Positions 1,779-62,949 of a stretch of DNA of 64,000 bases are shown piece after piece. The stretch spans positions 36,303,724 to 36,367,723 of the forward strand of contig JARFYF010000053.1 of assembly GCA_030265395.1 (NCBI GenBank), written 5' to 3'. The notes under the pieces were generated by a model. That model made no database searches and was not told the origin of the DNA. It saw nothing but the letters and a program-made list of their open reading frames with translations. Origin of the DNA: Rhina ancylostomus. Taxonomy: Eukaryota. The translations under genes and the position numbers were made by a program. The stretch's first letter is position 1; every line of letters starts with the position of its first letter.

Positions 1779-1814
1779 CTGTTTCTAGCAGCTTTCTTTT
1801 CAATGCTGTGATTT
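1779..1814 (-). CDS. Micro-exon 26 (36 nt): EITALKRKLLET
   Basis: ctctcttctttcgatttcag|AAATCAC...GAAACAG|gtcggg. Confidence 0.88.
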
Positions 1815-30600: not shown

Positions 30601-32901
30601 ACTGTTTTGTGATCTTGAGCGAATACGCAGAACATCCACCCTTTGCAGCCAGTGTATTCACGTGGCTAGCCCAGTTACATGTCTGCTCAATGTTGATTGC
30701 AAGGATACTGATGCCAAGGAACAAGGCGATGCTCATGCCAAAGTAAATAGCAATATTCTCTTTTATTGAGATAGCCATTTCTTGGAAACTGTTCGGCAGG
30801 CATATTTCTTGTCAATATCACACAGAGCGCTAAAGAAACTCAGCATGTCAGGCAACATCCATCTCGGGAAATAGACAGTCAATGTTTCGGGTCGAGACCC
30901 TTCATCAGTTCAGATGGAATTTCTCAACCCAAAACGTCGACTGCCATTTCCTTAAATACACGTTGCCTGAGCTGATGAGTTCCTCCAGCTTTTTGAGTGC
31001 TCCTCCAGATTTCAACATCCGCAGGCTCTTGTGTCTATATCTCTTGCCATCTTTCATCCCGTGTCTTAACGTTGTCAACATTCAGCGACAGGCAGTGAAC
31101 GTTGTTCAATTATCAGCTGACGTTCCCACTACCGAAATTTAGATGGAAAGAAAATCATTAAATAATATCAGAAAAAGATTAGGCCTTTGGCATTGAACTT
31201 GTAACTCTGATTGTCTCATTATTAAAATAGACTGGAAATTTTCTGTCAGCAAGCAATTATTTGAAGTTTCAGTTCTCTCGGGGTTGTGCATAAAATAATC
31301 CTGCAAAATCTGAAGTCGTTAGGTTTCAATACAGCTCCATTACTTAAGGCCTTATTTTCATCAGCAGCCGACAATGAAACGTTTTTTTTTGTGGTACCAC
31401 CCACCAGCTTTTTATATTCATTGGAACACCAGCGGGCTCACGAAAAAGCGGTTGATCAACCATTTTGACTTTACTGGAGGGAGATAAGGGAGATACCCTT
31501 TAAAAGTTGGGGAGGCGGTGAAATTTACTCGATATGCTGCGTCATAAGGAGATATTCTTAAACCGTTTTCGATTTAATTTGATAGTAAGTTCTGAAAATT
31601 TACCTTTGATTTTCTGAACGCATTGTCCATCTGTTTATGATAATTTCATTAAATGAACATGCAGAATTATGACAACTGAACGCATGCATTAATGATTTCC
31701 ATATTTTACTTTTATTTAGTTTAATGATTCTTTTATATTGGCCAGTTCGTACTCAATAAATCCTACCATCTGTGCACGCCGCTGGCGGTATTCTTGCAGG
31801 GGCACAGTTTGTGCCCTATTCATCAATTGAGCTTAGGGCCTGGCTGTCGCTCTCGTCCAGTGAGATGGAGTGATGGGTGAGCAAACGACAAAGCCTCCTG
31901 CAGCGTATCTTGCACCCTGATTCCAGAACTGCCCTGATCAGCTTTGGAAAACTTGTAGCTGCTGTTCAGAGACACGTAATGTGGTTCGGAAATACTTAAA
32001 TAATGTAGAACTCTTACATGTAATGAACAAAAAGTCGAAAATAACTATCACTGGAATCTAACGCCTCAGCACATTAGTATAGGTAGCTCTAAGAATCGCT
32101 GAGATGAGCGCTGAATGGCTGTGTAAAAGGTCAAAACCTTGACTGCGCAGCACACTTTGTGGCCAGTTCAATCTTCTTTTCCATTGACTTTACTCGGAGA
32201 CATAAATTTCCAACCTTATCTCTCACCTGTCTCGTCCAATCGGATCTTCAATTTGTTAAATTCTGAGGGAAAAAAAGACAGGGATATCACGAATGTTTTT
32301 GTAAAATTAGTTGGGCGTAATTCAACGTGAAAGTTGCAGAGCTTTGGAAGTCTTTTATAACACACCCCGATTTCAGATTTTTAGAGTATATGGAAAAGGA
32401 AATTGCGAAGCAGTTGTTGATCTGATGTGACTAGCGGTAAAAATGAATCACACTCTCTGTATTGTCATACCTCAGAGCATCTCAGCGTGGTTCAAACGAA
32501 TCTGCACAAACTCCGCATGGGTTTTTGAAAGGGAAACTATGGTTAGCAAACCAACTGGTATGTTTCTTTTAGGATTCAACAGGTATAATAGATACAAGAG
32601 AAATCGCGCGTGTCGTGAGTTTGGATCTTACAGAATCGTTTTTGATAAGGTGCCCCGTGGGAGGTTCGTGGCCAAACATAGGTAACATGCGATTGGGGAT
32701 AACATGGTAAGGATTGAGAAGTAGTTGTGTTACGTACCAGCAACAAAAGAAACACACCAAGACATGTATAAGTGTTAAAAACTACTTTATTAATAACTAC
32801 TNNNNNNNNNNNNNNNNNNNNNNNNNNNNNNNNNNNNNNNNNNNNNNNNNNNNNNNNNNNNNNNNNNNNNNNNNNNNNNNNNNNNNNNNNNNNNNNNNNN
32901 N

Positions 32902-32945
<44 letters not shown>

Positions 32946-35900
32946 AGGGACACTCACTAATAGTCCTAGTCCGTAACAGTTGTCAGACAGGAAACAAGGT
33001 AGGTATAGATTGCTTCTTTTCAGGGTGACAGGGAATGACTGGCGTTATGCCAAAGGTTCAAAGCTTGAATCCCAGCCATTCATAATCTGTGTCAGTGACT
33101 TACATGAACTAAAATCAACGTCTACAAGTTTGAAGATGACGTCATGGTTAGGTTGGGAGTGTGAGGTGTGAGGACGATGCAATGGCTCCCCAGTTAGAAA
33201 AGTTGTGTGATTGGGTAAATGCATGGCAATATCGCTTTCATGCGGATAAATACTTTGGGTCGAAATTAAGAAAGACAAGTTAATTTCTTTAAGGTTATAG
33301 ATTGGGTAAAGAAGAGGGTCAACGAGACATGAGTGCCCTTGTACACCAGTCATTGAAAACAAGCATTCAGGTCCACCCAGGAGTTCGGAAGGCAAATGAA
33401 AATACGTAAGGGAACAAGGATGTCCTCCGGTAGCTGGACAAGCTTTCGTGAGACGAAATCTGGAGATTTGTGTACAGTTTTGGCTTGCTTATTCGACAAA
33501 GGAACTTTTTTGTCAAGGATGGAATGTAATGATGGTATACTGGGATGATTCTCGGGATGACAGGACGGACTCACGATTGGATCGGTAATGGCTGTATTTA
33601 TTGGAGCCATTTGTATTTGTATTTATGAGAATGAGAAGGAAACATAGAAACATACAGAATGCTATGACGATTAGACAGACTATATGCAGGAAATCTAGAT
33701 TCATAGACTAGAAACAGGGATCTTAGCATCAAGATACAACATGTGTCTTTTCGAATGGAAGCCAAGAGAAATATGGTTTTGCAGAGCGCGGCGTGCCTAT
33801 GGAATTCTACAACAGAAGGCAACGGAGACTAAATTATTAAATATATTCAAAAAGGAAAGAGATACACTTCTTTATGCCAAAGATATCAGATGACACATAG
33901 AGCACGTAAAAAACACAGGAGTCAAGTGTATGATGAGCCATGATTTTGTTGAATTTAGTTATAATTTATGCATTCTTTACTGACAGAACAATTCCAAAAA
34001 CTGGTCACGGCGCCGTCCACCGTTCAAAGTTCAAAACTTCGGAATCAAGTTGAACTGTGAAATTTATGCTACCAAAGAGCGGGGCCGGAGTGCTAAGTGG
34101 CTTGTTCCTGCTCTTAAGCTTTATGTTCTATGTTTCAGCTCATTATTTCTGACAAATTACAACATACGAGCTGCAGTACCAGCACTGATGAGATAGTAGC
34201 AATATAACTTGTTTCAATAATGTTCATTGAGGGATAACCTTTGGATGGCGCATTTGAGATGAGCTTCTCCTGATACTGTAGCTTGATTTTGTAGACCAGT
34301 GACAGTTGATGACAAATCGATGTTTTTATATTACCTGTATGTGATCTGCAAAAGTGAAGCTGTCCCTAATATTTCCGCTTGGTTTGGCAACTGAAATCTC
34401 ACAGCAATTCTGAACTTCACGAGTGGTACACAGCGCCGTGGTCAATTGTTGGAATAGAGTTCCGTTACTAAGGAATGCACGTTTGCGTAATGCAAGATGG
34501 ACGAACTGTTCAGCAAAATATTACTTTCCCAATCTCTCTCTTTATGAAGTATATTCTGAAAATTTAATTTTGATCAAGCTCTTCTGATATTTCCTTGCAG
34601 GACTGTTTCAATTCTCGTTTACCAGTTTCTATAAGAACTACGTCAGGAAGTTTCATTAGATTATTATTTCTGTATCAGTGTGATAATAAAATAATTGCAA
34701 ACTGGTCCAGTACATATGTTTTCTAAGAAAAATCCAGTTAGACCATTTTGTGGATCTTACCCCGTAATCCTAAATTTTCTCTTAATATGCTGATCCAATT
34801 AGATTCAAAAGCCACTTCATATTTGTTTTCATCCAATCCGTAATTTATTTCATTTTTAAGCCATACTCGGGACAAATTTGTTGTTCTTTCCAAAATTGCC
34901 TGCTTGGTCTTTCGTCCTAAATTAAGCATCAAGTTTTGGTGGACTTTCCTTGCTTCCTTTTATTACAAGCGGTAACAATTGTTTGAATGTTTTGCTTCCA
35001 GCTACGAAAGCATAAAGAAATTGACCCCCAATCCATCCAAAGTAGATGGGGGCGGAGTTGAACCTATACTTGGAGTGGGATTCATATTTGATCATTAGTT
35101 TATTCATAATCGCACACTACCTGGAAAATCATGGAATGAGCAATCTGGTCCATTTCTTTAGCGCCGGTTTTATCATTATGACAAAAGGCATCTATTAATA
35201 CCATTAACAATTAATCCTGAATAGATGTACTGGGTGTCAGGGTATTGTTGAAGCTGCTCAGATACGCATGGATAGTTTGCCATTCCAAAATGATGTCAGA
35301 GAATCTCCACGATTAACAATTGGCAAGAATAGAAAAAGACGGGCAAAGAAGAAGTATCTACGAGGAAGGGTTACGGTTGTAATATGAGAAGTTGGAACTA
35401 TGCATCTCAAAGCAGAAAGCAAGTAGAGATGTAATTGAGAAATCAAAGTTAAGAAGGGAATGGAAAGAAGAAACAAGGAGCAACTACTTTCCATGACAGG
35501 ACGACAGGACAGTCTGATATTAAAGCACACAGATAATACTTTTCAACTAACTGAAGCCCGAAAGATCAATAGTGTGGGATTAAACTGGAATAAAAAATAC
35601 CTTGGAATACTTGAATAAGAAAATAGGAAAAACTCACAGCGGTGTCAGAAAAGTGTAGTGTGATTCATTATATACCTCTTCACTGAGCTTCATTGACCAG
35701 GATTTATCAAAAAAATTTGTCTCGCGGTAGGTTCTGCTGCGATTCAATGAAATAACAATGGGCTAATAGCCGAAAAATATATTTTCTTTAATTAAAATTT
35801 TGATCACTGAGCATTTTGGCGTTCTTTCTTTCCATTAAAAGAATATCCGCAATTATAGATGCATATACCTTTTTCTTTGGTTCTTAGCTTATCATCTGTA

Positions 35901-38900
35901 AGTATAATAGCACACCAGCCGATCATTGCTGGCCAATTATTGCAGAAAACAAACATTGCATTTACATTTACTTTTCACCTGTTGACAGATTTTCGAATCA
36001 AAAATAAATAATTCCACTAAAATCCACGAATTATTTGAGGTGAATGAAATCTGTTCAACTGGCAACTGATGCTTATTAGTACAATCTTTTTCCTATTTCT
36101 AAATGACGGGCCATATTTAATGTAGAGGGTAAAAGACACAACAGAATGTTCCATTAATGTTCACTTCATCGTCCAATTTCTACAGATACTTGACTGACAT
36201 TAGATGTCAATATTAAGCTTCAAAACTGCTCCCTCCTCTCCCTGACCCTGCTCTCCCATTGCATTACGTCGTGGCTGATCTGATTGCAACTTCAACTGCA
36301 CTCCACGTTCCGATCAAACAACGTTAACTTGCAGTCGTTGCTTATCAAGCATGGGCTTTTATTTTCCATAATAAACTTTAATACCAAATGTCTTCTGTGA
36401 ATTGAATTGATCCTTCATTGTTTATAGCACGTTACTTGTTGAAATAAAGATGAATTAACCAATAATGAATTCGCTTACGAAAACCTTGCTAACAGTGCCT
36501 GATTAACTTGCATTTTTTTCTACCTTGTCATACCATCTTCAACAACAGATTGTAATATTTTTCCTGTATCATGCGTTCACCTAACCAGTTTATAGTCTCC
36601 TGCGCTTGTCTCCCTACACAACCCCTGAGATTAAGTGGGCAACATGTGGCATTTCCCAACCGAACTGAATCTTCCTTTGATCTTGACAATTTTAGGAATG
36701 TCAACACAATTTGGAATGGAGACGATCGATCTCACCATCCACGTTTAAAATACTGAATGATGAAGTTCATCTGGACCCAGCGATTTGATTGTGTATCTCT
36801 GCAACAATTAGCTCAATATTCAATATAATAGAAAATCAAGCAAATAGAGTACTGGCTGTTCAGCACAACACCATTGAATAATTTCCAATGATGGTCCTAT
36901 TTAACTCCTTACTATCTCAACCTGGCCTTCTTTCCAACAGCGCCAAAACAAATGGCGTAGTCTTAATGAACAGATTGGATTGCAATCTTATGTAATATAT
37001 AAACAATTTGATTTCTTTATATTTAAGTCGAGTAAAGATCATTTGCGTTTACGAATTAGTTGCAACATATGCTTTATTTCATTCTATATTTACAGACATA
37101 TTGTCCGCACCTATATCTGTGTAATCTTTGTTGAGATTATTTAACTCTGAAAGGAAGAAAAAGATTTTATCAAACCAGAAAAACCCACAAGTACATATTA
37201 AATATGAAAATTAATTATATGGTGTATTATATTCAATTTCTTTCCCCCTCAGATGCTAACTATCTAACTCTCGTCCATCCTTCGAGCAGAACATTGGACA
37301 GTTTCTTGTAAGGGTAGGTTAAATTATAAACTCAGAGTTGTCTCCCCAAATCTAGGTTAGAACCAGGTCTAACTTGTTGATTTTGCAATTAAAGCTCCCA
37401 AGCTCTACATCTCAAAACTGCTTTCTGCCAAGTCTCTCAGAAGCTTCTGATTAAATGCCTTGGTACATCTTTATGGGAGTTATCAATAATTGACTTCGAT
37501 AATTCTGCTTCAACATGCATTAGGCTGGACCTGGTTCACATACGTAGGAATATAACAAAGAGTTTTTAATGTGACCTATCTAACGAGAAACTGCCCAATA
37601 TTCTGTTCCTCAGATCTCACAGCACTAGTCACGTTCTGTCGCGAATATGTAAGGAAAGAAAGTACTGTGTAGAGTATTCAGGACTGGAATTGATTGATTG
37701 TTACCTTCAATGCACTTAGGCACACAGAAAGGAGGAAGAGGAGTTGGCGTTTGGGCCCTTGTTTCTTGCTCAGATATTCACGAAACTGATGGCCGATCCT
37801 CTGTTACAACACAATATTACAATAATAGCCATCAGGGATGACAGACAATACCAGTCCAGAGTCGAGTCCCAGATCAGATGTCAGTTGTGGCAGGGCTTAC
37901 ATGCTACAACAGCTACAAAATTAAGTCGGGCAGCTTCGCCGATAACAGCGCATCCCTGCCCGATGAGCAAAATGTATTCTATGTCCGTTTTGAACAGAAG
38001 GGTTTGGAATGTCACGACCCATCCCGACAGCCCCTAATGCACCTGAATCCACAGTAACTGTAGCAGACGTAAGATCAGTCTTCCGGAGAATGAACCCGCG
38101 GAAAGCATCTGGCCTGGATGGTGTCCCTGGCCGTATCCTTAGAGCCTGTGCAGATCAGCTGGCGGGAGTATTTGCAGACCTTTTAACCGCTCCCTGCTCG
38201 AATATGAGGTTACCACCTGCTTTAAGAAGACCACCATCACCTCAGTACCCAAACAAGGTAAAGTGCCTTAATGACTACCATCATGAAGTGCCTCGAGAAG
38301 CTGGTCATAGCATGGATTAACTCCAGCCTTCTAGGCAACCTCAACTCACTGCAATTCGCTTACTGCTGAAACAGGTCTACAGCGGATGTCATCTCCCCGG
38401 ACCTACACTCATCTCTGGAGCCTCTGGATAGTGAGAAACCTGTGTTGGACTATTGTTTATTGACTACAGCTCCGCCTTTAATACTATAATTCCAACCAAC
38501 CTCATCTCCATACTCTGAGACCTGGGACTTAACACCTTCCCTCGCAACTGGATCCTTAACTTACTGACAAACAGACTGCAATCATGAAGCATAGGTAGCA
38601 ACACCTCCACCAAAATTATTCTCAACATTAGTGCCCCACATGGCCACGCCTTCAGCCCCCTACCCTACTCCCTATACACTCACGACTGCCTGCCAGATTC
38701 TGCTCTAACTCCATCTACAAGTTTACGGATGATATCAGTGTAGTGGGCCGTATCACAAATAACGATGCGTCGGAGTACAGGAAGGAAATAGAAAGCCTTG
38801 TGACATGGTTTTATGATAACAACGTTTCCCTCAATGTCAGAAAAACAGAAGAGCTGATCATTGACTCCAGGAAGGGGGAAATGCAACGTGAAACCGTCCT

Positions 38901-41900
38901 GAGGTCTGGAGGGTCGAGAGCCTCAAGTTACTTATGTGTGAACATCATCAATAACCTGCCCTAGTCCAAACTCGCAGATGCCACGGCCAAGAACGGCAAC
39001 CAGCGCCTCTACTTCCTCAGAAGGCTGAAGAAATTTGGTATGTCTCCTTTGGATCTCATCAATTTTTATCGATGTCTCATAGAACACATCCAAACTGCGT
39101 GAATCACGGCTTGGTATGGCATCTNNNNNNNNNNNNNNNNNNNNNNNNNNNNNNNNNNNNNNNNNNNNNNNNNNNNNNNNNNNNNNNNNNNNNNNNNNNN
39201 NNNNNNNNNNNNNNNNNNNNNNNNNNNNNNNNNNNNNNNNNNNNNNNNNNNNNNNNNNNNNNNNNNNNNNNNNNNNNNNNNNNNNNNNNNNNNNNNNNNN
39301 NNNNNNNNNNNNNNNNNNNNNNNNNNNNTTCTATTGTTGTTTTACCCTGTTCTACATCAATGTACTGTGTAATGATTTGACCTGTATGAACGGTATGCAA
39401 GACAAGCTTTTCACTTTACCTCTACACATATGACAATAATAACTCAATTTACCGTTATTATATTTCTATTCTCGATCCAGTTCAACTCACGCATTTTGTG
39501 TCAGGACATCTGCATTCTTTCTTCTTAACTGTACTCCGCGACTTAGCTTCCATCGCTTTCTGCCATCAACAATTCGACAGGTTCACAACTGAGTAAAGAA
39601 CTTCCTACTTATTTCCGCCCTAAACCTCTTATCCCATATCCTGAGACTTTACCCAACTGAAACATACGTCCCATATCCAGTCTATATAGACTGCATAATT
39701 TTTTACGGCCAACCCCACTCATTCTTGAACGACCGGGATGTATTTTAAAGAAAGATAACGATCAGCGACTGAGCTGATGATTAGTATAAAGATGTAGCAA
39801 TTAAAGAGGTGACAACGAGTTATCTGCTAGGCTAAGCACTGTTACATGAAGTGAAAAGGGGATTAATTTTAGTGACATAAATGGGGCCATTCGACCCATT
39901 GAAATCACTCCGTTCTCAAATAATTCTATCAGTCCCGTAACCCCACTGAATGAACTTATTCCCTTTCACGTGCCCAGAAATTTCACCGAATGGCCTGGCA
40001 ATCGCCGACACGATGAGGCGAATTACCCTTGCAGTATCAAATTAGCAGACCTGCCTCTATCTCGGAAATACGTGCGAAGCACCCAGGGAAACCCACTAGG
40101 TCACAGGGCGAAGGTTAAAGATCCAAATAGTTAGTCCCCGAGCAGAAAAGCAAACTCGTATCTTTGGAATTGTGATGCAGCAGCAATACTATCTGCAGTC
40201 CTTGTCCAGCAAGCCTCGCCCTCCGATTTCACCGAAGTGTCTACAATTCTTAAAACCTGTGTGCTGGAGAGTAAAGACGTCTGGGACGGAGACCAAACTG
40301 ACTGAAGCACTTTATTCAGGAGGGAATTCATGTAGAGCATAGAAAACACCAAAACCTATCGCACATAATTTGAGTACATGGTATAAGGCTGAACATATTG
40401 GTGTGAATTAATATCAGTTGATAAACAGGAAAGGGAATAAGGTTAAATATCTCACTTTTGATTTTGAAGGCTGTAATCATTGGGTTGCTCAGGAATTAGA
40501 ATTTTTACTCCACCTGCTCACAATTTATATGAATATACTGGATAAGGTAGCCGGATGGATTATATCCAATATGCTGATTATAAGAAGCGGAGTGGCATAT
40601 GTGGATTTCAAGCAGCGTAAAGAGAATTCAAGCAGGAATACATAGTTTAAATAAAAGGCCGAGAGCATAGCAGATGAAATATATCATGAGAAAACGAAAA
40701 GACATCCGCTTAGCCAGCGAAAAATGGAAAACAATTCGTTAAAAATAATGAGGCATGAAAACTGATCAAGATTCCCTTGGTACACGAAGTTCTTAACACT
40801 AACATGCGCATAGAAGTAGCACTTAGGAGGATAAATAACGTGTTGGTTGTTATTTAAAGGAAATAATTAAACTGGAAGAGACTGAGTTTATTCTTGAAAC
40901 AAAAGTGCATAGGAAAAATATTTAAAGAACTATGTTGATCATTTATAAACTGAAAGAAGTCGTTCATAAGGTAGGGCATAACGTCTGATATTACAATCGG
41001 AAAATTCAACAGCAGAAACGCTTTAAAATGTCGAATTCGCTTTCAGAAGGAGTAGTGGAAGCAATTAGCAAAACTGCATTTAAGTAGTTGTAAAATGGGC
41101 ACATGATGTCACATTGTTGATCCGGAGCAAACTCACAGAGAACCCAATTGCGGCACACCGATACAAGACTGGAGTCAGGATACTTCCTCAGGACAAACGC
41201 AGGCAGTAACTGGAAGGAATCTTGCNNNNNNNNNNNNNNNNNNNNNNNNNNNNNNNNNNNNNNNNNNNNNNNNNNNNNNNNNNNNNNNNNNNNNNNNNNN
41301 NNNNNNNNNNNNNNNNNNNNNNNNNGCATGGAATCCATGTGCTGGACAACAAGGCATTAATGGAGCCAAATTGAGGGCCAGAACTCAGAACCATGACACA
41401 TGATGGAGAAGGGAATTCAAGTATATGTTGATAGAAATATTTGCGAAAGGATATGAGCAGTTGCTCAAACCAGGAGTGGTTATAGTCAGCCACTCTGCTG
41501 TTATGTTTAGATTGAATTCATGTTCACGCTGTTCAGTCGCCAACAAACATTTGAACGCCCTTCCCTACCTTTAGTCTTTGTTTTCAAACTGCTTTCTGAA
41601 ACAAAATGATCCATTATCGATAAAGTTATTCATATTAAAAGGTAGGAAAACGAGAATACGCACAAAAAGAGAGAAGGGCAGTTGGACACATTACTTCCAG
41701 AAATGACTCGATAGACTGTAGTTTTTCTGCAAACCTATTGCATTTGAGGGGAGAGGGAGGAAACACATTTAAGCAAATGTCAGTTAGCCGAACATCAGTA
41801 CAAATGAAAATGATAGAATCTATTATTAAGGAAGTGGTGGCAGTTCGCATGCGAATTGTCAAACACATGCGTTAGGAAGAGGAACAGAGCACTCTGCCCT

Positions 41901-53900: not shown

Positions 53901-56900
53901 ACCGCAGCAATTTGCCCTCCACTTTGGTTGAGATAAATTATAATCAAAACGTTTTCCATTGACCTGTATCGTGCAGATTGTCTTTTAGTTTCCCAACTTC
54001 TAAAGAAAGACAAGTGGAAACATGTGAGAGAAGTTAAATTGTTACACGCTCGTAGAATATGCACATTGTGAAATAGAACGACGTACAGTGCTGCCTCTAA
54101 GACGATAGAAATAAAAGGAAAGGCAAATTTAACGAATCATTGACAAAATTACCAAGGATAGACTAAGGCCGGACGAGAATAAATAATCTATTACATGAAG
54201 GAGAAAGTAAGACAGAAAGAAATACCCAGGTCAAGAAGGAAGGAAGTACTGTAAAGTGAAGATGTGATTACAGAGGAAGGAAGAAGCAATGTGACATCNN
54301 NNNNNNNNNNNNNNNNNNNNNNNNNNNNNNNNNNNNNNNNNNNNNNNNNNNNNNNNNNNNNNNNNNNNNNNNNNNNNNNNNNNNNNNNNNNNNNNNNNNN
54401 NNNNNNNNNNNNNNNNNNNNNNNNNNNNNNTGGACATTAAAGAATCTAGGCACTTCTAACGGCAAGCTAAATGCAACTTTGTGTGGAGTCTATTACGGAC
54501 TCAGCACAATCGTTTTAATCTTGCTGGTGCACATCGAGATTCAGTAACAAAATAGGTAATGCTGATTCGATTAAGTAAAACCTAAACTCACTGCTTACCT
54601 TTTTCTTTCTTGTTGAGTTTTAGTTCTAGATGAAAGACAATATTGATCAACGTATTTATTGGGCTGGAATTTGGTCTCAGTCGAAGTTGCGGAGGCCGCT
54701 CGTTCATGTATTTCCCAATATTCAATCATACTATTTGCTTTCAAAGTGAACATCGCTGCAGGAGTATATCAGATCGCATGACACATAAGAGCAGAATATC
54801 CATTCCATTGTGAATAGAACGGCCTTAAGAAATTTGCATTGAGTTCAAGTCATGATGAATTTATAAGTCATGCAAAAATCATGTATTAGACCCTATCACC
54901 AAATTAAATCGTTGAGCAATATATTCAGGCTATCACCTTACTTAGTATCTCCCATGCAAATATATCAAGAATGGCAATAAAATAAAAATCACCTGCATAT
55001 TATCCCATTCTTATATCAGGATAGGAGATGCTTCATTACGGGCGGACACTTTACACGCTGTATTATCTCTTTAGCCCCAGATTTAAAAATAAAAGCTGTA
55101 GATTTAAGTTAGTTGAAGTCCCATTCTCCCTTCCAGAGAATGTGTACAGACCCGTCAAAAAGTTGATTTTCCGCATACCCGTTAACCAATGCAAGCTAAG
55201 CAAACTGGCTAGAGTCAGTGCTGAATTGACAGGTGAGATCTTTGAAGATTCACACATATTTGATGATGTTGCCTCTGTGTTATTTTGTCATTTCTTGTTA
55301 TTTTCGCGTTTGCAACAAATCCCACAAGTTATCCACGTTCTGATTGGCCTGAATACTCGAGATGCACAGATATCCAGTGCAAGTCTGCAGATATCTTATT
55401 TAGTGTCGCACGTCTGCATTATAATTGTGAAACTGCATGTTAGAAAAAGTATTCTGTGGAATGAAATGCACATCAGAAAAGACCGAAAGCTTTCAGACCG
55501 CGTTGTGACACACTTTCAATATTCAGCGCCGTTTAACTAATCGAAATAAAATGTTGCAACATCAATGCTACATCACACCAACATGATGTCTACTGAATCT
55601 CAGCCAAACATTTTATTGAAAGTGTTTTGTTCAGTTTATCTAACGTTTTTTCATCTTATTCCTTCGTTTCAGGTTTCCCATAAATAAGTGGTGCTTACTG
55701 AGTGTAGCCAGCATTAGTGTTCCACAGTTTGTTTGAAACGATAATTTGTCAAATTTGTGGTTCCTCTCACCGATATCCTGGATGTAGTCTTTCAACTTTC
55801 CTATACCTATAAAGTAGAAAATGTAACGTTCTCATTCCGTTCACTCGACTTCCTTAAAATCCTTCTTGACAAAGGAAGGTACACTGAGCAATAACGAACA
55901 TTTCTATATTTTTAATTGTCATAGAATCATAGAACAGTACAGCACAATACAGACCCTTCTGACCATAATTTTGTGCCGACCTTTCAATCTCGTCTATGAC
56001 GACCTAACCCCTTCCTCCCACATATTCCCCTATTTTAAATTCCTCCATATACTTGTCTAGCAATCTCTTGAATTTGAACAATATACCTGCATCCACCACC
56101 ACCCTAGGCAGCACATTCCATGCCCCAACTGCTCTCTGGGTAAAAAAAAACATACATCAGATATATCCCTTGAACTTCCCACTCATTACTTTAACACCAT
56201 ACCCTCTGTGCCCTGGGAATGAGGCGCTGGCTGTCTACTCCATCTATTCCTCTCAGTATTTTGTATACTTCTATCATGTCTCCACTCATCTTCCTTCTCT
56301 CCAAAGAGTAAAGCCCTAGCTCCCTTAGTCTCTCCTCATAATACATACTCTCTAAACCAGGCAGCATCCAGGTAAATCTCCTCTGCACCATTTCTAACGC
56401 TTGCACATCCTTTCTAAAACGAGGCGACCAGAACTGGACACAGTACTCTAAGTGTGATGAAGGAAGAGCGAAGCCGGTTTCTAAAACAGACAATTTGTTT
56501 GATATTGGGCAAAATCAGTCCATTTCATAAGAGATACCATGCACCTATATATATGTATTCGGCGTCAATCCTCTTGAAATTGTTGGCTAGATCTCATTAT
56601 GAATATACTGCACACAACATCAAGAATAACAGGAGGCAGGAGAAACGAATTGTTTGGGTCGCGGCCAGTAAGGGAGCACTCGGAGGTGGTTTGCATGGTC
56701 AATTTTATGAAACCTCTTGCCAGGTAAGAAGCAAGAGGTCTACCTAAATCACCCATAGCTTAACGTACCTCCGGATTTTTTCCCAAGAATTCCCCAGATG
56801 TTGATGACGAGGCTTTTTCCGGAGTGTCTGCAGCGTTGTCTGAAAAACGGCCAGGTTTCTAACGGAAAGTAAACTCACTTTGTTCATTCATTGATATTCG

Positions 56901-59900
56901 TAGTATAATTAATGGAATTCACTTGGCGATTTCAGAGGATATTAACACGTGGAAGGTTTTCTTTAGGGTCCAGAGGTATATGCAGGGCAGAGTGAACGAG
57001 TTTAACAGAGATATATTTTATAAAAAAACAGAATTAATTCTGAACCTAATTTACAATTATTAATTTATTCTCAATTATTAATAATAAATGTTATTCTGGT
57101 TTTATGTTATTTCCTGTTATTTATATATCCCAGTTTCCCCTGTTGGTAGCTCCATCGTCGTAAAGTCATAGAGCCGTACAGTTATGTAGCACGGAAGCAG
57201 TCCTTTTGCCCCAACTCGTCTATGCTGATCCAGAAGCCTTCGGTGAGTAATCTAGATCTATAGATCATTGCAATTGCAACAAACAATCTGCAGCATGGGA
57301 TCTTTAAAAAAGAGCAACGCGACTGTCCTTATGATCAAAATGTAGGGAAGTGTAGGGAGGAATTTGAAATCATCTTCGGGAGAGAATTTAGGATTGTGGG
57401 GTCTGAATTGTACCCACACAAAGCTCTTTAGTTAGCAGTGTATGAATGAATGCAGCGGATAGTGTGGCAAGTATTCAGTCGTTTAAACGGTGCTAGATAC
57501 CAGAAAAATATATAGGCAAGACATAATGCCTAGTTTGCACATATGCACAAACTTCTGATGTTCTCTAAGTTCCGAAGCTGATGACAGTCATACAAATAGT
57601 TACGAATGGAAATGCACATGTCAATTTGCAGATAGCATCAATGCAATCAATTCAACTCAGCTTTTTCTGATGATGATAATTCAGAAGTATACACCAGGAA
57701 GTCCACTTTAATATCTCCATCGTTTCTCTTGAATGTAATATTATGAGGTGTTTTAACACATGATTCTGATGGCCGGCTGAAACCGTGATACCAGTTCTCT
57801 GCTGGATTGCATGTTCACAGGAACGATTGGGTTAGGAAGTGAATGCATCATAGTAATTACGTTTTTTCTTTAGCAGTTGGAAATAAGGGGCGATCCTTAT
57901 TATAGTGGCTGCTGTTACCCCCTGTCCCGAACAAAAGGGAAAACAATGGCGACGTAAATAGGACATAACGTACAAAGACAGGTCAGTTGGTCCATCCTGC
58001 CCACGGCGGCATTTCTGTTCTTTTTGAACCCTCTGCCACTTTTTATGATTTAAAGATATGAGTATATGCTGTTTTCCTTTCATTCCTCATTTTCATGCAC
58101 AGCCTTCTCTGAAGTATATCCACGCGATTTGATGCAATCTCACCACTTTATATTTGTTATCTGCTCAAATTTATGACAGACTTGGTTTTACTTACTTTTT
58201 TCTGCTCTGTTCAGACTTTGTTCTGCAAAATAATACACGCACATTATTGGAAATACAAAGAACCTACACGGAAAGGGAAAACACTGAAATTATTTCATCG
58301 CAGTAATTCATACGAAATTATCCATCTTACTCCAATGCTCTCGCATTTTACTTATGTTCCCATGACGGAATTCAGATATATTGGTTCAAGATAAGCTTAT
58401 TTTGTCCGGGTTTCGCTGTCATACTGATAGTCCTGTGTACTTGCAACGATAATATTCAGATACAAAATAAACAGAAAAAAGATACAATGGATCACACAGT
58501 AGCTACCCATTGCAAACAAGTTTCTTTGTCATACAACTCCCCAGTACATGCTGGAAGCACTCAGCAGATCAGGTAACATTCTACAGAAAGAGGAAGAAAG
58601 TTACGCATCAGATAAGATATTTTTCGTCAAAACAGGGACAGAGAGATTAGAAATGTGTTTTAGTTGCAGAAAGTGGCCGGAAGGGATGGATCAGATAGAG
58701 TGCATTTCTGATTTCGTGCGGGGACAGATCAGATGGATTAATGGAACAGGTTGAGGGTGGTTACTGATTTTTCTACGTCATGTGTCATTAATTTTAGCTC
58801 TCTGAGCCTTCTAAACAGATCATACTGTAATAATGGATAGCTAAAATGTGGACCAATATCACAGCTGGATGACCTTCAGTGGAAATGTTTAGTTTCACTA
58901 TAGACAGAGAAAGCGAGTTACCCCAACAGCTGGAAAAATGTCTATGTCTCTGTTACTTAGGCTACAGATCAATTTAGATAACGAAGAGCCATTTGCATTG
59001 AATGGAAGGGGAAAGAGACTGAATGGTCTTCGTATTTGTGCAGCCTTCGTATATTGATCATCACCCGTACGTTGCTTTCGTGGCAATAGATACAGGGCGT
59101 ATTATCAAACAATTTAAAAGTTATTTTGTGCTGGAACTAATCTTCAAGATGATTTCATCTCATTCCAATGGATTTCGAGACTGGTTGCTCTTCTTTCTGT
59201 ACAGACATTAGAAGGTTATCTTTTTAAATACTGCAATCAGATTTCTTAAAAATCTTGGTCAGATCAAGAAAACCGGCTCTTTTGTAATCCAAGAGAGAAG
59301 ACCCAATTTTGTAAAGATGCTCTAAAGCTGCCTAATTGATTGAAGAACTGCCGTCTTATTTTCTCCATTCAGCAGAAGTTGTTTCCAAGAAAGATGGTAT
59401 TTTTAAACTACTTTTTAAGATGCAGGACCTGGTGCAACTGGGATTGGAGAAACATTATATCAATATATCGTTTTTCTAAATTATTTCTTGAATGTTTTAC
59501 AATCATCCGCGCTATTAAACGATACCATTCCTCCATGTCACACAATGATGAACTTCCTTTTCCATTTTCGACATTGATTCTACACGTCAATATTCACGGT
59601 TGGTGGAAATGTCATACGGCTTGTCTGGAAATGTCTCAGAAATGTATTACCACCATTAATCATTCTACACTTCAACCGCCTTTTGCAGTAAGTAACCAAT
59701 GGTACTTCAGTTTTTTACCAGTAGTTCTGCAATGAATCAAGTCCATTTAACATCCACACTGCTGAATATTCTAAGCTGCATTCTAGTATATTTCTGCTGC
59801 AGGCTTCCAAAGGTATCCTTTCTGGCACGTTCCACTTAAAAGGAATGCAACATATCAGAAACTGCTTATCCTAAAGGTAATGTAACTAAAATAACCAGTC

Positions 59901-62900
59901 GCTGCCTCATAAGCCAGAAACTCACTGAAATTTAAAATACTGTACTTTGTTTTTTCATTTCTCTGCTAACTTCAAATGATATCATTTCCAGCTTAACATC
60001 TGCGGTTCATATTGTTTTGGCTTCGTACTGACTCAATTATCAGCAACACTTCATCCTGTGAGAAACTCCAATCTTCGTTTGGATGCAAGATCTAAAAACA
60101 CCACTGTGTTGAGCTCCGTTGAATATATACACGAGTTAGACAAACAAGTCAATTTTGTACTCACCCCGATCGTAAATATTATTTTTCAATGTTTCTAGTT
60201 CTGCAAGAGATAAATAAAATTAATATAAATGCTAAGTGTTGAACTTGACTCAATGCAGCACCTTTCAAAATGATAGGAATATTTTCTCGTGTTGGCCACG
60301 ATGTTAACGGGCCATATTAGATCTATCATCTATTTTTCATCTCTCGTGATTTCAGCATTATTTCCATGACTCCAGTGGCTATTGCAAACTTACTCTCCGG
60401 CAAGCTCAATTCAGTAACCTATGCCTTTGTCACCCAAAGAAGTTTCAGTTGGGAAAAAGATCCGATTTTCAGATATTTTACTTGATTTAGCAATACTCGA
60501 ATTCACAGAATTCCGAAACCTGCAGGAACTCATTAGTTCAGTGGACTTGAAAATCCGCCATTAACATATTTGAAAAATGTTATTATGAGCAATATCCAAA
60601 CTCGTATATTACTTCCCTAACTCAGAATACACGTAGATAAGTGAGTTGATTAAAACGGAGAAAGAGGAACTCGGAATTGCAAAGAATAATGTTGAGTTGG
60701 TCTAAGATGACTATAGCTATTAAAATGTCTCGGAGTTATCTTCCGAGCCTTTCCAAGCTAAGACTAATGAGTCATTGTGCCGAGTGTCAGGCAATATAAG
60801 ATTTACTGTTATTTTGAGTGTCGGTGGCATTGTTGAGTCATAACAACTATGGACAAGAATTAATCCACAATTTGAAAAGATAAAGTGGAAGGATGATTTA
60901 TGCTTTTCGCGCTTTTTATGGCGCATTTTCTTCAAATTGCAGAAAATTAAGAACATCGTGCCATCGTCTGGAAATTATGGGTGCTCATTTATGCACAGAA
61001 TTGCCTCATAAGTATCACGATGGCATTTCGAACACTAAATATATGTCTGTCAGCTGTTGCTGTTGATGGAATAATCCTGTCCTTGTAATAGCTAACTGAA
61101 ATGGAACTTCATTTGCCTTATAATATCCATAATTTTCTCACATATCTGTTTTAAATTTGTTCTCAAACACATTGCTCCCGCGAGAACAACAAGGACCGTA
61201 CCTATTCCAATATAATCATACAGCTGAACTTCTACTTCTGTCCAAAAATACCAATGATATCTTCCATACTGCCTTCAGTTTCTTCAGTTCATTTTTAAGG
61301 CGCTGCTTGTAGAATTTGACGCAAATATTGTCTTGAAAGTTTCAACACAGACTTCTTTTGTATTCTGTACGTACATGTATCAGAGTTAACACCTGGTCTT
61401 TCAACATAACTTGCCCGTTTAAATGACAAATATCCATATCTCCTTGAAGGTTCACGATCTTTCAGAATGCAAACTTTGTGTGATCTTTGAGCTTTAATCA
61501 GGTATATGGATGGCTCTGCTGAAAAGATTCTGAAGTTTTTTCTTCCATTATCACCTTTGATTTTGCTGGAAAGCTTTGTTTCTAAAATTAAAAGAAGATA
61601 TTCGAGTTACAATTATATTTACCAATCAGCTAACATGTACAAATAGACGTATGACCTTGTCAATAAATTTCGTAGCACTCCTTCGTCTATTAGTGCGAAA
61701 TATGGTCACGCTCAGTTCAATGTTCCACGAGTCCAAATGTGTCTCCACAGACTCTGTGAAATGCCAGGTGGTTTTTCCACTTGTCCTCTTCTTTTTCCAA
61801 TATCCTACGTTTATTTAATGCTGAAGTCTTGAGTTTTGTATACAAAGTCCAGAACTATCTCTGCTATGTTGTGAAGAAGTTGATACAAAAGGTCGATATT
61901 TGTCCAAGTTAATTTGGTCGCGTATTAGATTTACAAATAGTCTGATCATCGACCAAATTCACTGATTATCTTAATTATTGGTAAACAGTTTCATAGATGA
62001 AATAATGATTCTTGCAGATCAAATTGACAACAATTTGCACAAGTCTAATTAGATTAAGTAAAATAATATTTCATTAAATGCCTCATGGTTCGCGGTNNNN
62101 NNNNNNNNNNNNNNNNNNNNNNNNNNNNNNNNNNNNNNNNNNNNNNNNNNNNNNNNNNNNNNNNNNNNNNNNNNNNNNNNNNNNNNNNNNNNNNNNNNNN
62201 NNNNNNNNNNNNNNNNNNNNNNNNNNNNNNNNNNAGGGGAAGGAGCGTGTAAATTTTAACGTGTTGGGATTCATTGCCTTTGAAGACACTATATGTTTGA
62301 TGGCGGAGTTTGTGGACTTCACAGAAGTATCCGAATGAAACGTTGCTGGTTGAAGCTGAACACCAGCGAGGTAGGTGAACACTGCGTTCACTGTCGCCAA
62401 TTGCAGAGCGAATGACCGTAATGGCGAAGATTGTCTAAGAAATAATGGTACCCCTCTGGTATGTATATTAAAGCACTCTTTGGATTTTTTTTGTATCTGC
62501 ATCCTGTCACACAAGTCGAAAATAATGCATTGCATATACCTTGTAGACACTGTTTTATATGCCAACCCATGTCATTTATATATGAGATCATATCTAGCTA
62601 GAGGCCAAGGCTAACTGGATGCTCACCATCACACTTCTCCACCAAACGACTGAACATTTCCTGGCAAAATTCAGTTCAATATCTGTGAAAGATGTGAAAC
62701 TGCTCTGGCTGTAATTTTGCAAGGAAAAGAAATGTCTACGGCGTGGCGACTATGGCCCGGAAGGAAGAAAATGATTTAATCGTCATGTTAAGGTAGAGNN
62801 NNNNNNNNNNNNNNNNNNNNNNNNNNNNNNNNNNNNNNNNNNNNNNNNNNNNNNNNNNNNNNNNNNNNNNNNNNNNNNNNNNNNNNNNNNNNNNNNNNTA

Positions 62901-62949
62901 GAGATATACTCACCGTATTCAAGATTATCTTTCTTTACTTTTTCAAGCG
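1779..62949 (-). CDS. Spliced gene model (partial): long coiled-coil protein segment encoded by >=26 phase-1 micro-exons (798 nt, 266 codons); span includes introns; 5' end outside window, 3' end unresolved
   Basis: 26 AG..GT-bounded segments of 24/27/36 nt on one strand. They join without a stop into a heptad-periodic, E/K/L-rich peptide and are mutually similar. Family identity cannot be established from this window. Confidence 0.9.
3889..3915 (-). CDS. Micro-exon 25 (27 nt): EEEVREKDA
   Basis: ttgatttcacgttgcag|AAGAAG...GATGCAG|gtattg. Confidence 0.88.
5151..5177 (-). CDS. Micro-exon 24 (27 nt): DINKKGNVD
   Basis: ctgttttgtgattttag|ACATTAA...GTAGACG|gtaagt. Confidence 0.85.
5240..5470 (+). 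mobile_element. SINE-like remnant (V-SINE-type body)
   Basis: ...cctcacagcctaaagacgtgc...aggttcattagtc... resembles fish/shark SINE bodies from memory; not searched. A related copy lies on the minus strand at about 39870-40200. Confidence 0.45.
6817..6852 (-). CDS. Micro-exon 23 (36 nt): ELVKLKKSLLIA
   Basis: gttatatttacttag|AACTTG...ATTGCAG|gtgagg. Confidence 0.88.
7040..8850 (-). mobile_element. CR1-type LINE ORF2 fragment (decayed)
   Basis: Broken ORFs contain CR1 motifs: PLFKK..NKPGNYRPVSLMSVVGKLLE, GLIRDSQHG, LEYCVLLWS, QRKFTRMLPGLEDLSYRERL. Confidence 0.92.
8368..8472. repeat. Perfect 51-bp tandem duplication inside the CR1 fragment
   Basis: tgttctcaatacttttttgcctccgttccatagtctatatgtcgatttcca occurs at 8371 and again at 8422. 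Confidence 0.95.
9283..9309 (-). CDS. Micro-exon 22 (27 nt): ENNLEWKEK
   Basis: tatctctcttgttgcag|AAAATAAC...GAGAAAG|gtaact. Confidence 0.9.
11229..11264 (-). CDS. Micro-exon 21 (36 nt): EITALRKRLQEA
   Basis: tttcatatacttttag|AAATAAC...GAAGCAG|gtcagt; paralogous to exon 26. Confidence 0.9.
12727..12800. mobile_element. Start of an LTR-like repeat (same family as 41107-41398), running into an assembly gap
   Basis: TGTCAC..TGTTGATCC.GAGCAAACTCACAGAGAACCCAA.TGCGGCACAC.GATACAAGACTGGAGTCAGGA is near-identical to 41107-41180. Confidence 0.8.
13012..13705 (-). mobile_element. Rex1/Babar-type LINE 3' fragment
   Basis: KELVADFKKR..PVYINGAEVERVESYPFLGVNITNSLPWSNHVDAMAKKAYQCLYFL..LKKFGMSP; RTTRLKDSLYPTVIR. 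Confidence 0.88.
15205..15447. repeat. Degenerate (TG/TA)n low-complexity tract
   Basis: Alternating purine/pyrimidine TG-rich run. Confidence 0.75.
17590..18080 (+). mobile_element. CR1 LINE 3' end
   Basis: GDLMEVHKIMRDIDK...ESKTR.HG; typical CR1 tail. Further, older CR1 debris follows to about 18680. Confidence 0.85.
19692..19718 (-). CDS. Micro-exon 20 (27 nt): DEELREKDG
   Basis: ttttttgcgatgttgcag|ATGAAG...GATGGAG|gtgatg; paralogous to exon 25. Confidence 0.88.
21538..21561 (-). CDS. Micro-exon 19 (24 nt): DFSKCRID
   Basis: cttctaatctggtttag|ACTTTT...TTGACG|gtgagt; resembles exon 24 (both start AC and end GACG). Confidence 0.75.
21890..22910 (-). mobile_element. Decayed LINE (CR1/L2 clade) fragment
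   Basis: Minus-strand translation KAPVRDVMEYSPLAWIGAASTTLAELDTIE is a typical LINE ORF2 C-terminus. A related short piece lies at about 16770-17000. Confidence 0.75.
23857..23883 (-). CDS. Micro-exon 18 (27 nt): EETLHSKEK
   Basis: tgtgcttcccacag|AGGAAAC...GAGAAAG|gtaacg. Confidence 0.9.
24248..24360. repeat. (GAAA/GGAA)-rich simple repeat
   Basis: Purine-only tetranucleotide-like run. Confidence 0.8.
24740..24775 (-). CDS. Micro-exon 17 (36 nt): EKEDLSKNLKEL
   Basis: ttgattgaatttcag|AAAAGG...GAGTTGG|gtgaga. Confidence 0.85.
27436..27659. repeat. (GT)n microsatellite spanning a 100-N gap
   Basis: Direct observation. Confidence 0.98.
28090..29160 (-). mobile_element. Old CR1 LINE RT fragment
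   Basis: GPQIVTRYINDLAKGSECTVAISAGDTKI is a decayed form of the ...YINDL...KFADDTK RT motif. Confidence 0.75.
29491..29517 (-). CDS. Micro-exon 16 (27 nt): EESLLSTQT
   Basis: cttcccacatcttatgcag|AGGAATC...CAAACAG|gtaatg. Confidence 0.85.
29906..29932 (-). CDS. Micro-exon 15 (27 nt): ELEEKLKTA
   Basis: ttacttttattgcag|AATTGG...ACTGCAG|gtgaac. Confidence 0.85.
30820..31040. mobile_element. Two inverted Penelope-like terminal sequences forming an imperfect palindrome
   Basis: Left arm (..aactcagc..gtcaggcaacatc..gacagtcaatgtttcgggtcgaga) is mirrored by right arm (tctcaacccaaaacgtcgactg..gttgcctga..gctgatgagtt). Confidence 0.7.
31604..31630 (-). CDS. Micro-exon 14 (27 nt): DGQCVQKIK
   Basis: ttatcataaacag|ATGGAC...ATCAAAG|gtaaat; weaker acceptor, but its 3' end (AAAATCAAAG) is identical to exon 2. 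Confidence 0.75.
32227..32262 (-). CDS. Micro-exon 13 (36 nt): EFNKLKIRLDET
   Basis: tgtctttttttccctcag|AATTTAAC...GAGACAG|gtgaga. Confidence 0.9.
32340..33960 (+). mobile_element. Old CR1 LINE RT/3' fragment, interrupted by a gap and (CA)n
   Basis: FDKVPRGRFV and ESQPFIICVSDL motifs; CR1-like tail near 33700-33950. Confidence 0.7.
32902..32941. repeat. (AC)n microsatellite next to a gap
   Basis: Direct observation. Confidence 0.97.
35869..35895 (-). CDS. Micro-exon 12 (27 nt): DDKLRTKEK
   Basis: ctattatacttacag|ATGATAAG...GAAAAAG|gtatat. Confidence 0.88.
37111..37146 (-). CDS. Micro-exon 11 (36 nt): ELNNLNKDYTDI
   Basis: tctttttcttcctttcag|AGTTAA...GATATAG|gtgcgg. Confidence 0.88.
37828..39440 (+). 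mobile_element. Rex1/Babar-type LINE (RT region plus 3' end), frameshifted
   Basis: [40 protein letters not shown]; tttattgactacagctccgcctttaa (FIDYSSAFN); GRITNNDASEYRKEI..LNVRKTEELIID. Confidence 0.92.
40390..41500 (+). mobile_element. Old CR1 fragment hosting the LTR insertion at 41107-41398
   Basis: LLTIYMNILDK motif; the CR1-like tail resumes after the LTR (gggcacatga|tggagaagggaatt). Confidence 0.6.
41107..41398. mobile_element. Solo-LTR-like insertion with TGTCA...TGACA termini and 5-bp target-site duplication CATGA (internal gap)
   Basis: CATGA at 41102-41106 and 41399-41403; inverted termini; second copy at 12727. Confidence 0.85.
41569..41595 (-). CDS. Micro-exon 10 (27 nt): ESSLKTKTK
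   Basis: tcattttgtttcag|AAAGCAG...ACTAAAG|gtaggg. Confidence 0.88.
42140..43010 (+). mobile_element. Old CR1 RT fragment
   Basis: KSLRLDGMYPRNL; aactacaagtcagtcagtctg; ggtcagcatgaacttgttaagggaaaatcgt (decayed SQHGFVKGKSC). Confidence 0.75.
43861..44480 (+). mobile_element. Penelope-like element 3' part: GIY-YIG endonuclease C-terminus, pyrimidine tract and hammerhead-like tail
   Basis: 43861-44010 reads TSHSHTDMSFHGLLHCHVQAGRRLEEHHLIFCFRILQPDGLNIDFSNLR*, the E..hI..l....P.GLN end of GIY-YIG nucleases; CTGATGA core at 44351. Confidence 0.85.
46356..47098 (-). mobile_element. Probable solo LTR (about 740 bp)
   Basis: TGTTG...CAACA termini; minus-strand TATAAA (46775-46780) upstream of ATTAAA (46443-46448); GC-richer than flanks; no clean TSD seen. 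Confidence 0.7.
47994..48029 (-). CDS. Micro-exon 9 (36 nt): DVEKLRDNLQEA
   Basis: gatttctttttcag|ATGTGG...GAAGCAG|gtcagg. Confidence 0.9.
49260..49730 (+). mobile_element. Old CR1 3' end
   Basis: MGESRTKCH.L motif and CR1-like tail. Confidence 0.65.
49842..49868 (-). CDS. Micro-exon 8 (27 nt): EQRLGKKEK
   Basis: tttcttcattttgattcag|AACAAAG...GAAAAAG|gtaccg. Confidence 0.88.
51085..52370 (-). mobile_element. Old CR1 fragment(s)
   Basis: LDFQKIYDKVTHECLVCK...LAWIESGLTGMKQ is a decayed form of LDFQKAFDKVPH...WIE.WL..RKQ. Confidence 0.75.
53964..53999 (-). CDS. Micro-exon 7 (36 nt): EVGKLKDNLHDT
   Basis: cttgtctttctttag|AAGTTGGG...GATACAG|gtcaat. Confidence 0.88.
54599..54625 (-). CDS. Micro-exon 6 (27 nt): ELKLNKKEK
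   Basis: ttgtctttcatctag|AACTAAAA...GAAAAAG|gtaagc. Confidence 0.9.
55771..55806 (-). CDS. Micro-exon 5 (36 nt): SIGKLKDYIQDI
   Basis: cattttctactttatag|GTATAGG...GATATCG|gtgaga. Confidence 0.85.
55918..56455 (-). mobile_element. Relatively young CR1 3' end
   Basis: HLEYCVQFWSPRFRKDVQALEMVQRRFTWMLPGLESMYYEERLRELGLYSLERRKMSGDMIEVYKILRG. Confidence 0.92.
58196..58222 (-). CDS. Micro-exon 4 (27 nt): EQSLNRAEK
   Basis: tattattttgcag|AACAAAG...GAAAAAA|gtaagt. Confidence 0.9.
60165..60200 (-). CDS. Micro-exon 3 (36 nt): ELETLKNNIYDR
   Basis: ttttatttatctcttgcag|AACTAG...GATCGGG|gtgagt. Confidence 0.9.
61202..61237 (-). CDS. Possible extra or alternative 36-nt micro-exon: EVEVQLYDYIGI
   Basis: tatttttggacag|AAGTAG...GAATAG|gtacgg; right size and phase, but breaks the 27/36 alternation and fits the heptad poorly. 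Confidence 0.3.
61555..61581 (-). CDS. Micro-exon 2 (27 nt): ETKLSSKIK
   Basis: tcttcttttaattttag|AAACAAAG...ATCAAAG|gtgata. Confidence 0.85.
62914..62949 (-). CDS. Micro-exon 1 (36 nt): (A)LEKVKKDNLEY
   Basis: cttgtttatag|CGCTTGAA...GAATACG|gtgagt; first residue depends on the upstream exon, which is not in the window. Confidence 0.85.

Follow-up and report, generated by a model that had tools for sequence, protein, structure and literature searches.

A paired 27- and 36-nt micro-exon module in Rhina ancylostomus putatively encoding a long coiled-coil rod

A minus-strand gene made of phase-1 micro-exons was found by a splice-site scan to run across the whole of the window, which is the 64,000 nt stretch of Rhina ancylostomus contig JARFYF010000053.1 (assembly GCA_030265395.1, 36,303,724-36,367,723) analysed in our study. 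At least 23 exons are predicted with confidence and they belong to two kinds, one of 27 nt (kind A) and one of 36 nt (kind B); a pair of 27 + 36 nt gives 21 residues, or three heptads. The predicted product of the exons is a segment of a long alpha-helical coiled-coil rod, at least 240-266 residues or about 36-40 nm in length, and its building block may be the three-heptad unit contributed by one exon of each kind. Self-association of the chain is most likely parallel and in register, giving a coiled coil that is probably dimeric; its function would resemble that of the heptad tails which chicken BG and butyrophilins build from micro-exons, a spacer and docking rod. A BG/butyrophilin-like heptad rod forming such a coiled coil, in a gene whose ends lie outside the window, is the interpretation we consider moderately probable.

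The base composition of the window is vertebrate-like (35-43% GC), with N gaps and retroelement remnants. No long coding exon was found in it, no match to the Rfam RNA families was obtained, and a Pfam scan of 22 of its 46 open frames returned a single LINE-type match and no other known domain. The window is thus taken as the interior of one gene with its ends beyond. Upstream of exon 1 the gene runs on past the window edge, and after exon 25 no terminal or domain exon occurs in the window, where the gene presumably also continues past the edge.

The strict 36/27 alternation that had been noticed earlier for exons 1-14 was found in place on the minus strand (Table 1), with exons 1-13 well supported and exon 14 weak. 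All fourteen are bounded by AG...GT, in phase 1-1 and with an open frame. Among 40 symmetric phase-1 candidates on the minus strand, 13 have 27 nt and 13 have 36 nt, as against one and none, respectively, among the 12 on the plus strand; these counts are partly circular, as the splice-site models were trained on 22 of these exons. Leave-one-out class scores of the eight seed 36-nt exons (12.5-33.2) were all above the top plus-strand decoy (5.1), and for the nine seed 27-nt exons (2.7-30.4) eight exceeded theirs (6.0). Exon 14 scores only 6.0, where 25 of 2062 plus-strand decoys reach 8 or more, though at its 3' end it resembles the 27-nt kind (a score reached by 10 of 879 decoys). Exon 1 deviates from the pattern with Val at position 14 and Asn at position 18. 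Exon 4 ends in A and not in G, so the codon at the next junction is Ser, where Glu or Asp is usual. All exons are predictions from the DNA, and seven N gaps inside 31604-62949 could hide further exons.

Table 1. Predicted micro-exons of the minus-strand gene in transcript order, with positions in the window
Feature	Position	Strand	Length (nt)	Kind	Remarks
Exon 1	62914..62949	-	36	B	Slightly off-pattern
Exon 2	61555..61581	-	27	A	Strong sites, marginal class score
Exon 3	60165..60200	-	36	B	
Exon 4	58196..58222	-	27	A	Codon 7 Ala, not Lys; last base A
Exon 5	55771..55806	-	36	B	
Exon 6	54599..54625	-	27	A	
Exon 7	53964..53999	-	36	B	
Exon 8	49842..49868	-	27	A	74% nt identity to exon 6
Exon 9	47994..48029	-	36	B	72% nt identity to exon 7
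Exon 10	41569..41595	-	27	A	
Exon 11	37111..37146	-	36	B	
Exon 12	35869..35895	-	27	A	
Exon 13	32227..32262	-	36	B	
Exon 14 (uncertain)	31604..31630	-	27	Probable A	Weak acceptor; Cys at heptad a
Exon 15	29906..29932	-	27	B by sequence	Three codons short; stutter-sized loss
Exon 16	29491..29517	-	27	A	Codon 7 Thr
Exon 17	24740..24775	-	36	B	
Exon 18	23857..23883	-	27	A	
Candidate exon (uncertain)	21538..21561	-	24	Probable B	Minus four codons, stammer-sized; Cys at local d
Exon 19	19692..19718	-	27	A	81% nt identity to exon 24
Exon 20	11229..11264	-	36	B	75% nt identity to exon 25
Exon 21	9283..9309	-	27	A	
Exon 22	6817..6852	-	36	B	
Candidate exon	5151..5177	-	27	Neither	Score 18.4, good splice sites, Gly/Asn-rich
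Exon 24	3889..3915	-	27	A	
Exon 25	1779..1814	-	36	B	

Single decoys reach scores of 16-20. Some candidates were rejected as no better than decoys: 61202-61237 (36 nt, score 14.2), which would break the alternation and fits neither kind, as well as 12570-12596 and 26206-26232. A further one, 13457-13492 (36 nt), lies within a LINE remnant, and its score of 16.3 makes clear that decoys of this strength do occur. Two other exon-like candidates share the intron between exons 16 and 17, namely 28675-28698 and 26346-26381 (24-nt form 26346-26369); the latter has a B-like 3' end (one of 879 decoys as high) and a very poor 5' part, and was excluded from the model.

The two length classes are also two sequence classes. 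Failure of the 27- and 36-nt exons to cluster by sequence had been named beforehand as an outcome that would overturn the paired module; instead, a length-independent comparison separated them (permutation p 0.0002), and a classifier using the first 20 bases and the donor placed 21 of 21 typical exons rightly in leave-one-out, exon 2 narrowly. A nearest-neighbour class test with best offsets assigned just 18 of 25 exons correctly. Nucleotide identity is 0.47 within the 36-nt class and 0.42 within the 27-nt class, against codon-shuffled means of 0.32 and 0.35, and neither value was reached in 2000 shuffles. The donors differ at +3, which is G or C in all eleven 36-nt exons and A in 11 of fourteen 27-nt exons, while acceptor flanks gave no class separation (p 0.64). 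The donor signature of the 36-nt exons is class-wide and has been kept despite intron turnover; A at +3 occurs in none of them, and four of these donor sites start with the less common GTC.

The pair, and not the single exon, was found to carry the heptad register. The 27-nt exon reads e-f-g-a-b-c-d-e-f and the 36-nt exon g-a-b-c-d-e-f-g-a-b-c-d, which places unit positions 4, 11 and 18 at a and 7, 14 and 21 at d. The core described in the earlier note, with hydrophobic residues at 4, 11 and 18 and Leu or Val at 14, holds in the ten full units: position 4 is Leu in nine and Val in one, 11 is hydrophobic in nine, 14 is Leu in all ten and 18 is hydrophobic in all ten. The claim that only the pair keeps register also stands, since the period is 3.50, identity autocorrelation recurs at 21, 42 and 63, and shuffling the exon order kills the signal (p 0.003). 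Of the two peaks expected, at 3.5 and 21, the first was obtained in the hydrophobic spectrum of spliced exons 1-14 (3.50, p 0.002) and the second in residue identity (autocorrelation 0.38 at 21), but hydrophobicity itself has no peak at 21 (p 0.2-0.3). The spliced model has no Pro, and 49% of its residues are charged. In exons 2-13, Leu occupies 11 of 18 a positions and 6 of 18 d positions. The core Leu codons are of both CTN and TTR types, and four-fold third positions agree in just 13 of 41 comparisons; Leu has thus been kept while synonymous sites are near saturation, which indicates that the copies are old and have been selected as protein-coding. It is proposed that selection has preserved the pair as a whole, since one exon without the other puts the heptads out of register.

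The regular module reaches beyond exons 1-14 and is larger and more regular than first reported. By length alone, the 3' half shows 27-27 neighbours. Exon 15, however short, has a right-anchored B score above all 879 decoys and shares 19 of 27 nt with exons 9 and 20, and candidate 21538-21561 (score 5.7) has a B score matched by 10 of 879 decoys. With these two and exon 14 counted, the kinds alternate across the window with the exception of 5151-5177. Of the 11 intervals between one A exon and the next, nine measure 21 residues, one 18 and one 17; the losses of three and four codons in the two B-kind exons add up to one heptad, by which the register is restored. In coiled coils, a stutter is a loss of 3 residues and a stammer a loss of 4; both are tolerated, and the length changes that survive here apparently have these sizes only. 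Candidate 5151-5177 would break the register and may be a hinge, an alternative exon or a decoy. Of six whole-window models, the one with 25 exons had the highest signal at 3.5 (5.63 versus 1.89-3.97), but it was chosen post hoc from the six and leans on two weak exons and on the omission of 5151-5177; the period was 3.49-3.51 in five of the six. A 51-residue five-exon repeat considered for the 3' half was discarded, as it rests on 5151-5177, and on omitting that candidate the similarity (0.62) is that of a 42-residue two-unit repeat. The only two Cys residues of the model lie in its weak exons, exon 14 (a) and 21538-21561 (local d), both in the core.

Tandem duplication, either of the pair or of blocks of several pairs, would have built up the array long ago. 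Growth by duplication of an exon pair, as suggested earlier, is supported so far as linked duplication goes: over ten units in the 27-then-36 pairing, similarity of the 27-nt exons correlates with that of the following 36-nt exons (Mantel r 0.56, p 0.0004), also without the youngest pair (0.49, p 0.017) and in the first six units (0.68, p 0.026). The unit boundary is less settled. The opposite pairing gave a nonsignificant r of 0.17-0.27 for the exons alone, but with 10-nt splice flanks it correlates (r 0.37-0.61, p 0.012-0.026), and the 27-then-36 pairing is weaker there. These comparisons support growth by duplicated pairs or blocks of exons. In exons 6-7 and 8-9, an exon pair seems to have been duplicated next to itself. 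In the proposed trees of each exon class with splice flanks, exons 19-20 group with 24-25 with a support of 99/100, but most other branches were poorly separated; these youngest clear copies stand two units apart, so blocks larger than one pair have probably been duplicated too. Self-BLAST revealed no intron homology between units, and of 16 flank comparisons the only one that exceeded its shuffles lies beside an N gap. An ancestor of 3 x 21 nt would be expected to leave some homology between the heptads of a unit, but no such trace could be told apart from the effect of core spacing (38-39% nt identity between heptads within a unit, versus 48-55% for the same heptad between units).

The Lys reported as nearly constant at position 7 is indeed present in eight of ten full units and in 9 of 11 typical 27-nt exons, the other two having Ala or Thr, and all eight examples quoted for it (ETKLSSK, ELKLNKK, EQRLGKK, ESSLKTK, DDKLRTK, EETLHSK, DEELREK and ENNLEWK) are real. 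It falls at heptad d, and one weak Lys layer at d per unit may act together with the 21-residue pattern and the e/g charges in penalising slips of one or two heptads. In parallel in-register alignment of exons 2-13, seven g-e' pairs are attractive and one is repulsive (p about 0.02), against attractive:repulsive ratios of 4:13 and 5:10 for slips of 7 or 14; such slips also create 6-8 charged-versus-hydrophobic core contacts, and in register there are none. Counted roughly, an antiparallel arrangement scores +0.2 to +0.3 per pair, not far below the +0.35 of the parallel one. The suggestion that the core Lys may set oligomeric state or register fits to the extent that in-register pairing is favoured over these slips, but a special role of Lys would be harder to argue, a surface Lys being nearly as constant. 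The slip counts fit a register code to which the e/g charges would contribute as much as Lys. In host-guest peptides, ionisable d residues favour two strands. According to the accessible part of the COCONUT preprint, parallel dimers tolerate Lys usually at a, and d is dominated by Leu, which makes Lys at d the less usual case.

The same Lys could have been kept for RNA reasons, as part of a purine-rich splicing enhancer in the micro-exon, or through shared ancestry, with no structural switch; we hold this to be possible though somewhat doubtful. A makes up 49% of the exon bases, AAGAA is about tenfold denser in the 27-nt exons than in the window (0.027 versus 0.0025 per base), and a second Lys at codon 9 (f, at the surface beside the donor), two codons past codon 7 and inside the purine-rich stretch, is present in 8 of 11 copies as compared with 9 of 11. 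On the other hand, both Lys codons are used at codon 7 (AAA seven, AAG two) at the gene-wide ratio (Fisher p 1.0), and in seven of the nine copies with Lys the residue after it, at e, is acidic, which is what a compensating salt bridge calls for. Pair identity is 0.65 at codon 7 and 0.51 at codon 9, whereas the non-core codons 2, 3, 5 and 6 have only 0.07-0.13.

Comparison with the known heptad micro-exon genes gave both likenesses and differences. Some butyrophilin exons are of 27 nt. Chicken BG tails, in the accessible portions of PMC5938342 and PMC4046983, are made mostly of 21-nt one-heptad exons with a few of 18 or 24 nt, hold 13-38 heptads and are presumed to be dimeric coiled coils. In the accessible text of PMC5938342, the split codon 1 of these exons is e, codon 3 is g, 4 is a and 7 is d, and conserved cysteines are reported in the tails. 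As far as these sources go, the present array resembles BG in being a long heptad rod (tens of heptads, at 240-266 residues) made from many tiny split-codon exons with occasional odd lengths. [quoted passage not shown] Since Glu results from a phase-1 G|AA junction and is apt at e or g anyway, the shared phasing is weak evidence and may be convergent. Unlike BG, none of the 26 modelled exons is of 21 nt, two kinds must pair, Lys occupies one d in three and the array spans more than 60 kb; no IgV or transmembrane exon was seen within the window, and any such exon would lie outside it. Mammalian butyrophilins (BTN3A and kin) are described, in the accessible portions of PMC6790196, PMC7348870 and PMC8813856, with several very short heptad exons between the membrane and B30.2, modelled as a coiled-coil dimer in the first two, and the family is reported in cartilaginous fishes, with heptad number varying across vertebrates, in that of PMC12841164. 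The array shares with them a heptad rod from very short exons; as so described they have few heptads, whereas here there are at least 23 confident exons, and Ig, transmembrane and B30.2 exons were not seen within the window.

Homologue searches bear little on this comparison. A profile of 11 36-nt exon peptides matched none of 1612 candidates at E up to 10, none of the solved structures and none of 1.84 billion representatives at E up to 0.001. In simulation it detected 5 of 6 relatives at 90% identity, 1 of 6 at 80% and 0 of 12 below, and mixed 27+36 profiles failed outright; being nearly blind below about 85-90% identity, the empty searches mean little. No description of a 27+36-nt module was found in the literature searched, most subscription papers and all supplements lying outside it.

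That the exons match splice patterns by chance, or are remnants no longer in use, is very improbable. They are predicted from DNA alone and lone decoys score as high as noted above, but the bias in strand and length, the class-specific donors, the open state of all frames, the 3.50 period and the conservation of Leu at saturated synonymous sites all argue for a coding array. A different coding product is easier to imagine. CD23 (FCER2) has an extracellular stalk of 21-residue three-heptad repeats, three or four in number, that arose by exon duplication and are encoded by one 63-nt exon each, followed by a C-type lectin domain. The rod could similarly be the extracellular stalk of a type II membrane protein (a CD23/CD72/CLEC4-like lectin, a scavenger receptor or a TNF-family ligand), probably trimeric or disulphide-linked. 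The repeat length shared with CD23, the core Cys of both weak exons and the dominance of Leu at a and d, which is compatible with a trimer, would suit such a stalk. We regard it as unlikely in view of the high charge, of the absence of lectin or TNF exons from the window and, weakly, of the absence of any N-glycosylation sequon among 16 Asn in 266 residues (about 1.6 expected). Moreover, the 21-residue period is here split 27+36, unlike the single 63-nt exons of CD23; among minus-strand candidates scoring 7.5 or more there is no 63-nt phase-1 exon, bar the low-scoring 22662-22724.

The array may also be part of a coiled-coil protein, soluble or cytoskeletal, that is lineage-specific and has no relation to BG and butyrophilins, its likeness to them being convergent through a phase-1 junction that favours Glu at e and g; this deserves a tentative place, more so than the stalk. 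The want of 21-nt exons, within-unit heptads no more alike than core spacing explains, and the empty, insensitive homologue searches are in line with it. Against it, BG genes are the nearest documented parallel for a design of dozens of heptad micro-exons in the accessible portions of the literature searched. The BG/butyrophilin-like rod is retained as our preferred reading.

Coiled-coil rods from heptad micro-exons are already known from BG and butyrophilins. Distinctive here are the two-exon module, in which neither exon is a whole number of heptads, the alternation kept over about 12 units, and losses of stutter or stammer size only. As every exon preserves the frame, nonsense-mediated decay cannot police single skipping and protein register alone can; the module offers a clear example from nature in which the geometry of a protein, and not the reading frame, restricts how exons evolve. 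It raises the question of whether frame-neutral micro-exons are skipped in register-preserving pairs. A much bolder proposal, and an improbable one in its full form, is that of a BG/butyrophilin-like elasmobranch receptor with a tail of at least 36 heptads, expanded independently of chicken BG, with paired splicing, stepwise rod length and a Lys/charge register code. Splicing in coupled pairs would then tune rod length by 21 residues (about 3 nm) per step, the two class-specific donors would help to enforce the pairing, and the Lys-at-d layer with the e/g charges would form the code. If the gene is BG-like, very long heptad tails would have evolved repeatedly in the butyrophilin family, and a cartilaginous-fish comparison would become available for the function of BG tails; for an ordinary coiled-coil protein, it would be a curiosity of gene structure.

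The introns also hold several repeats. A decayed LINE at 7100-8700, with reverse transcriptase and endonuclease relatives, carries an exact 51-nt tandem duplication (8368-8472); its reverse-transcriptase frame (7951-8499) has 59 relatives, and all seven of the vertebrate-named ones are from sharks or rays, which points indirectly to an elasmobranch. Comparison of an intron LINE with phages gave no match and was uninformative. The 3' part of a second LINE is present in two copies in opposite orientations (13234-13730 and 38591-39091, 73% identical), and in one of them PF09004 is weakly matched and a 36-nt exon falsely predicted. A short interspersed repeat has copies at 1032-1176, 30834-30984 and 44327-44485, the second copy being an imperfect palindrome. 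A 74-nt stretch is 95% identical between two introns (12727-12800 and 41107-41180), each copy near an N gap, and is either a young repeat or an assembly echo.
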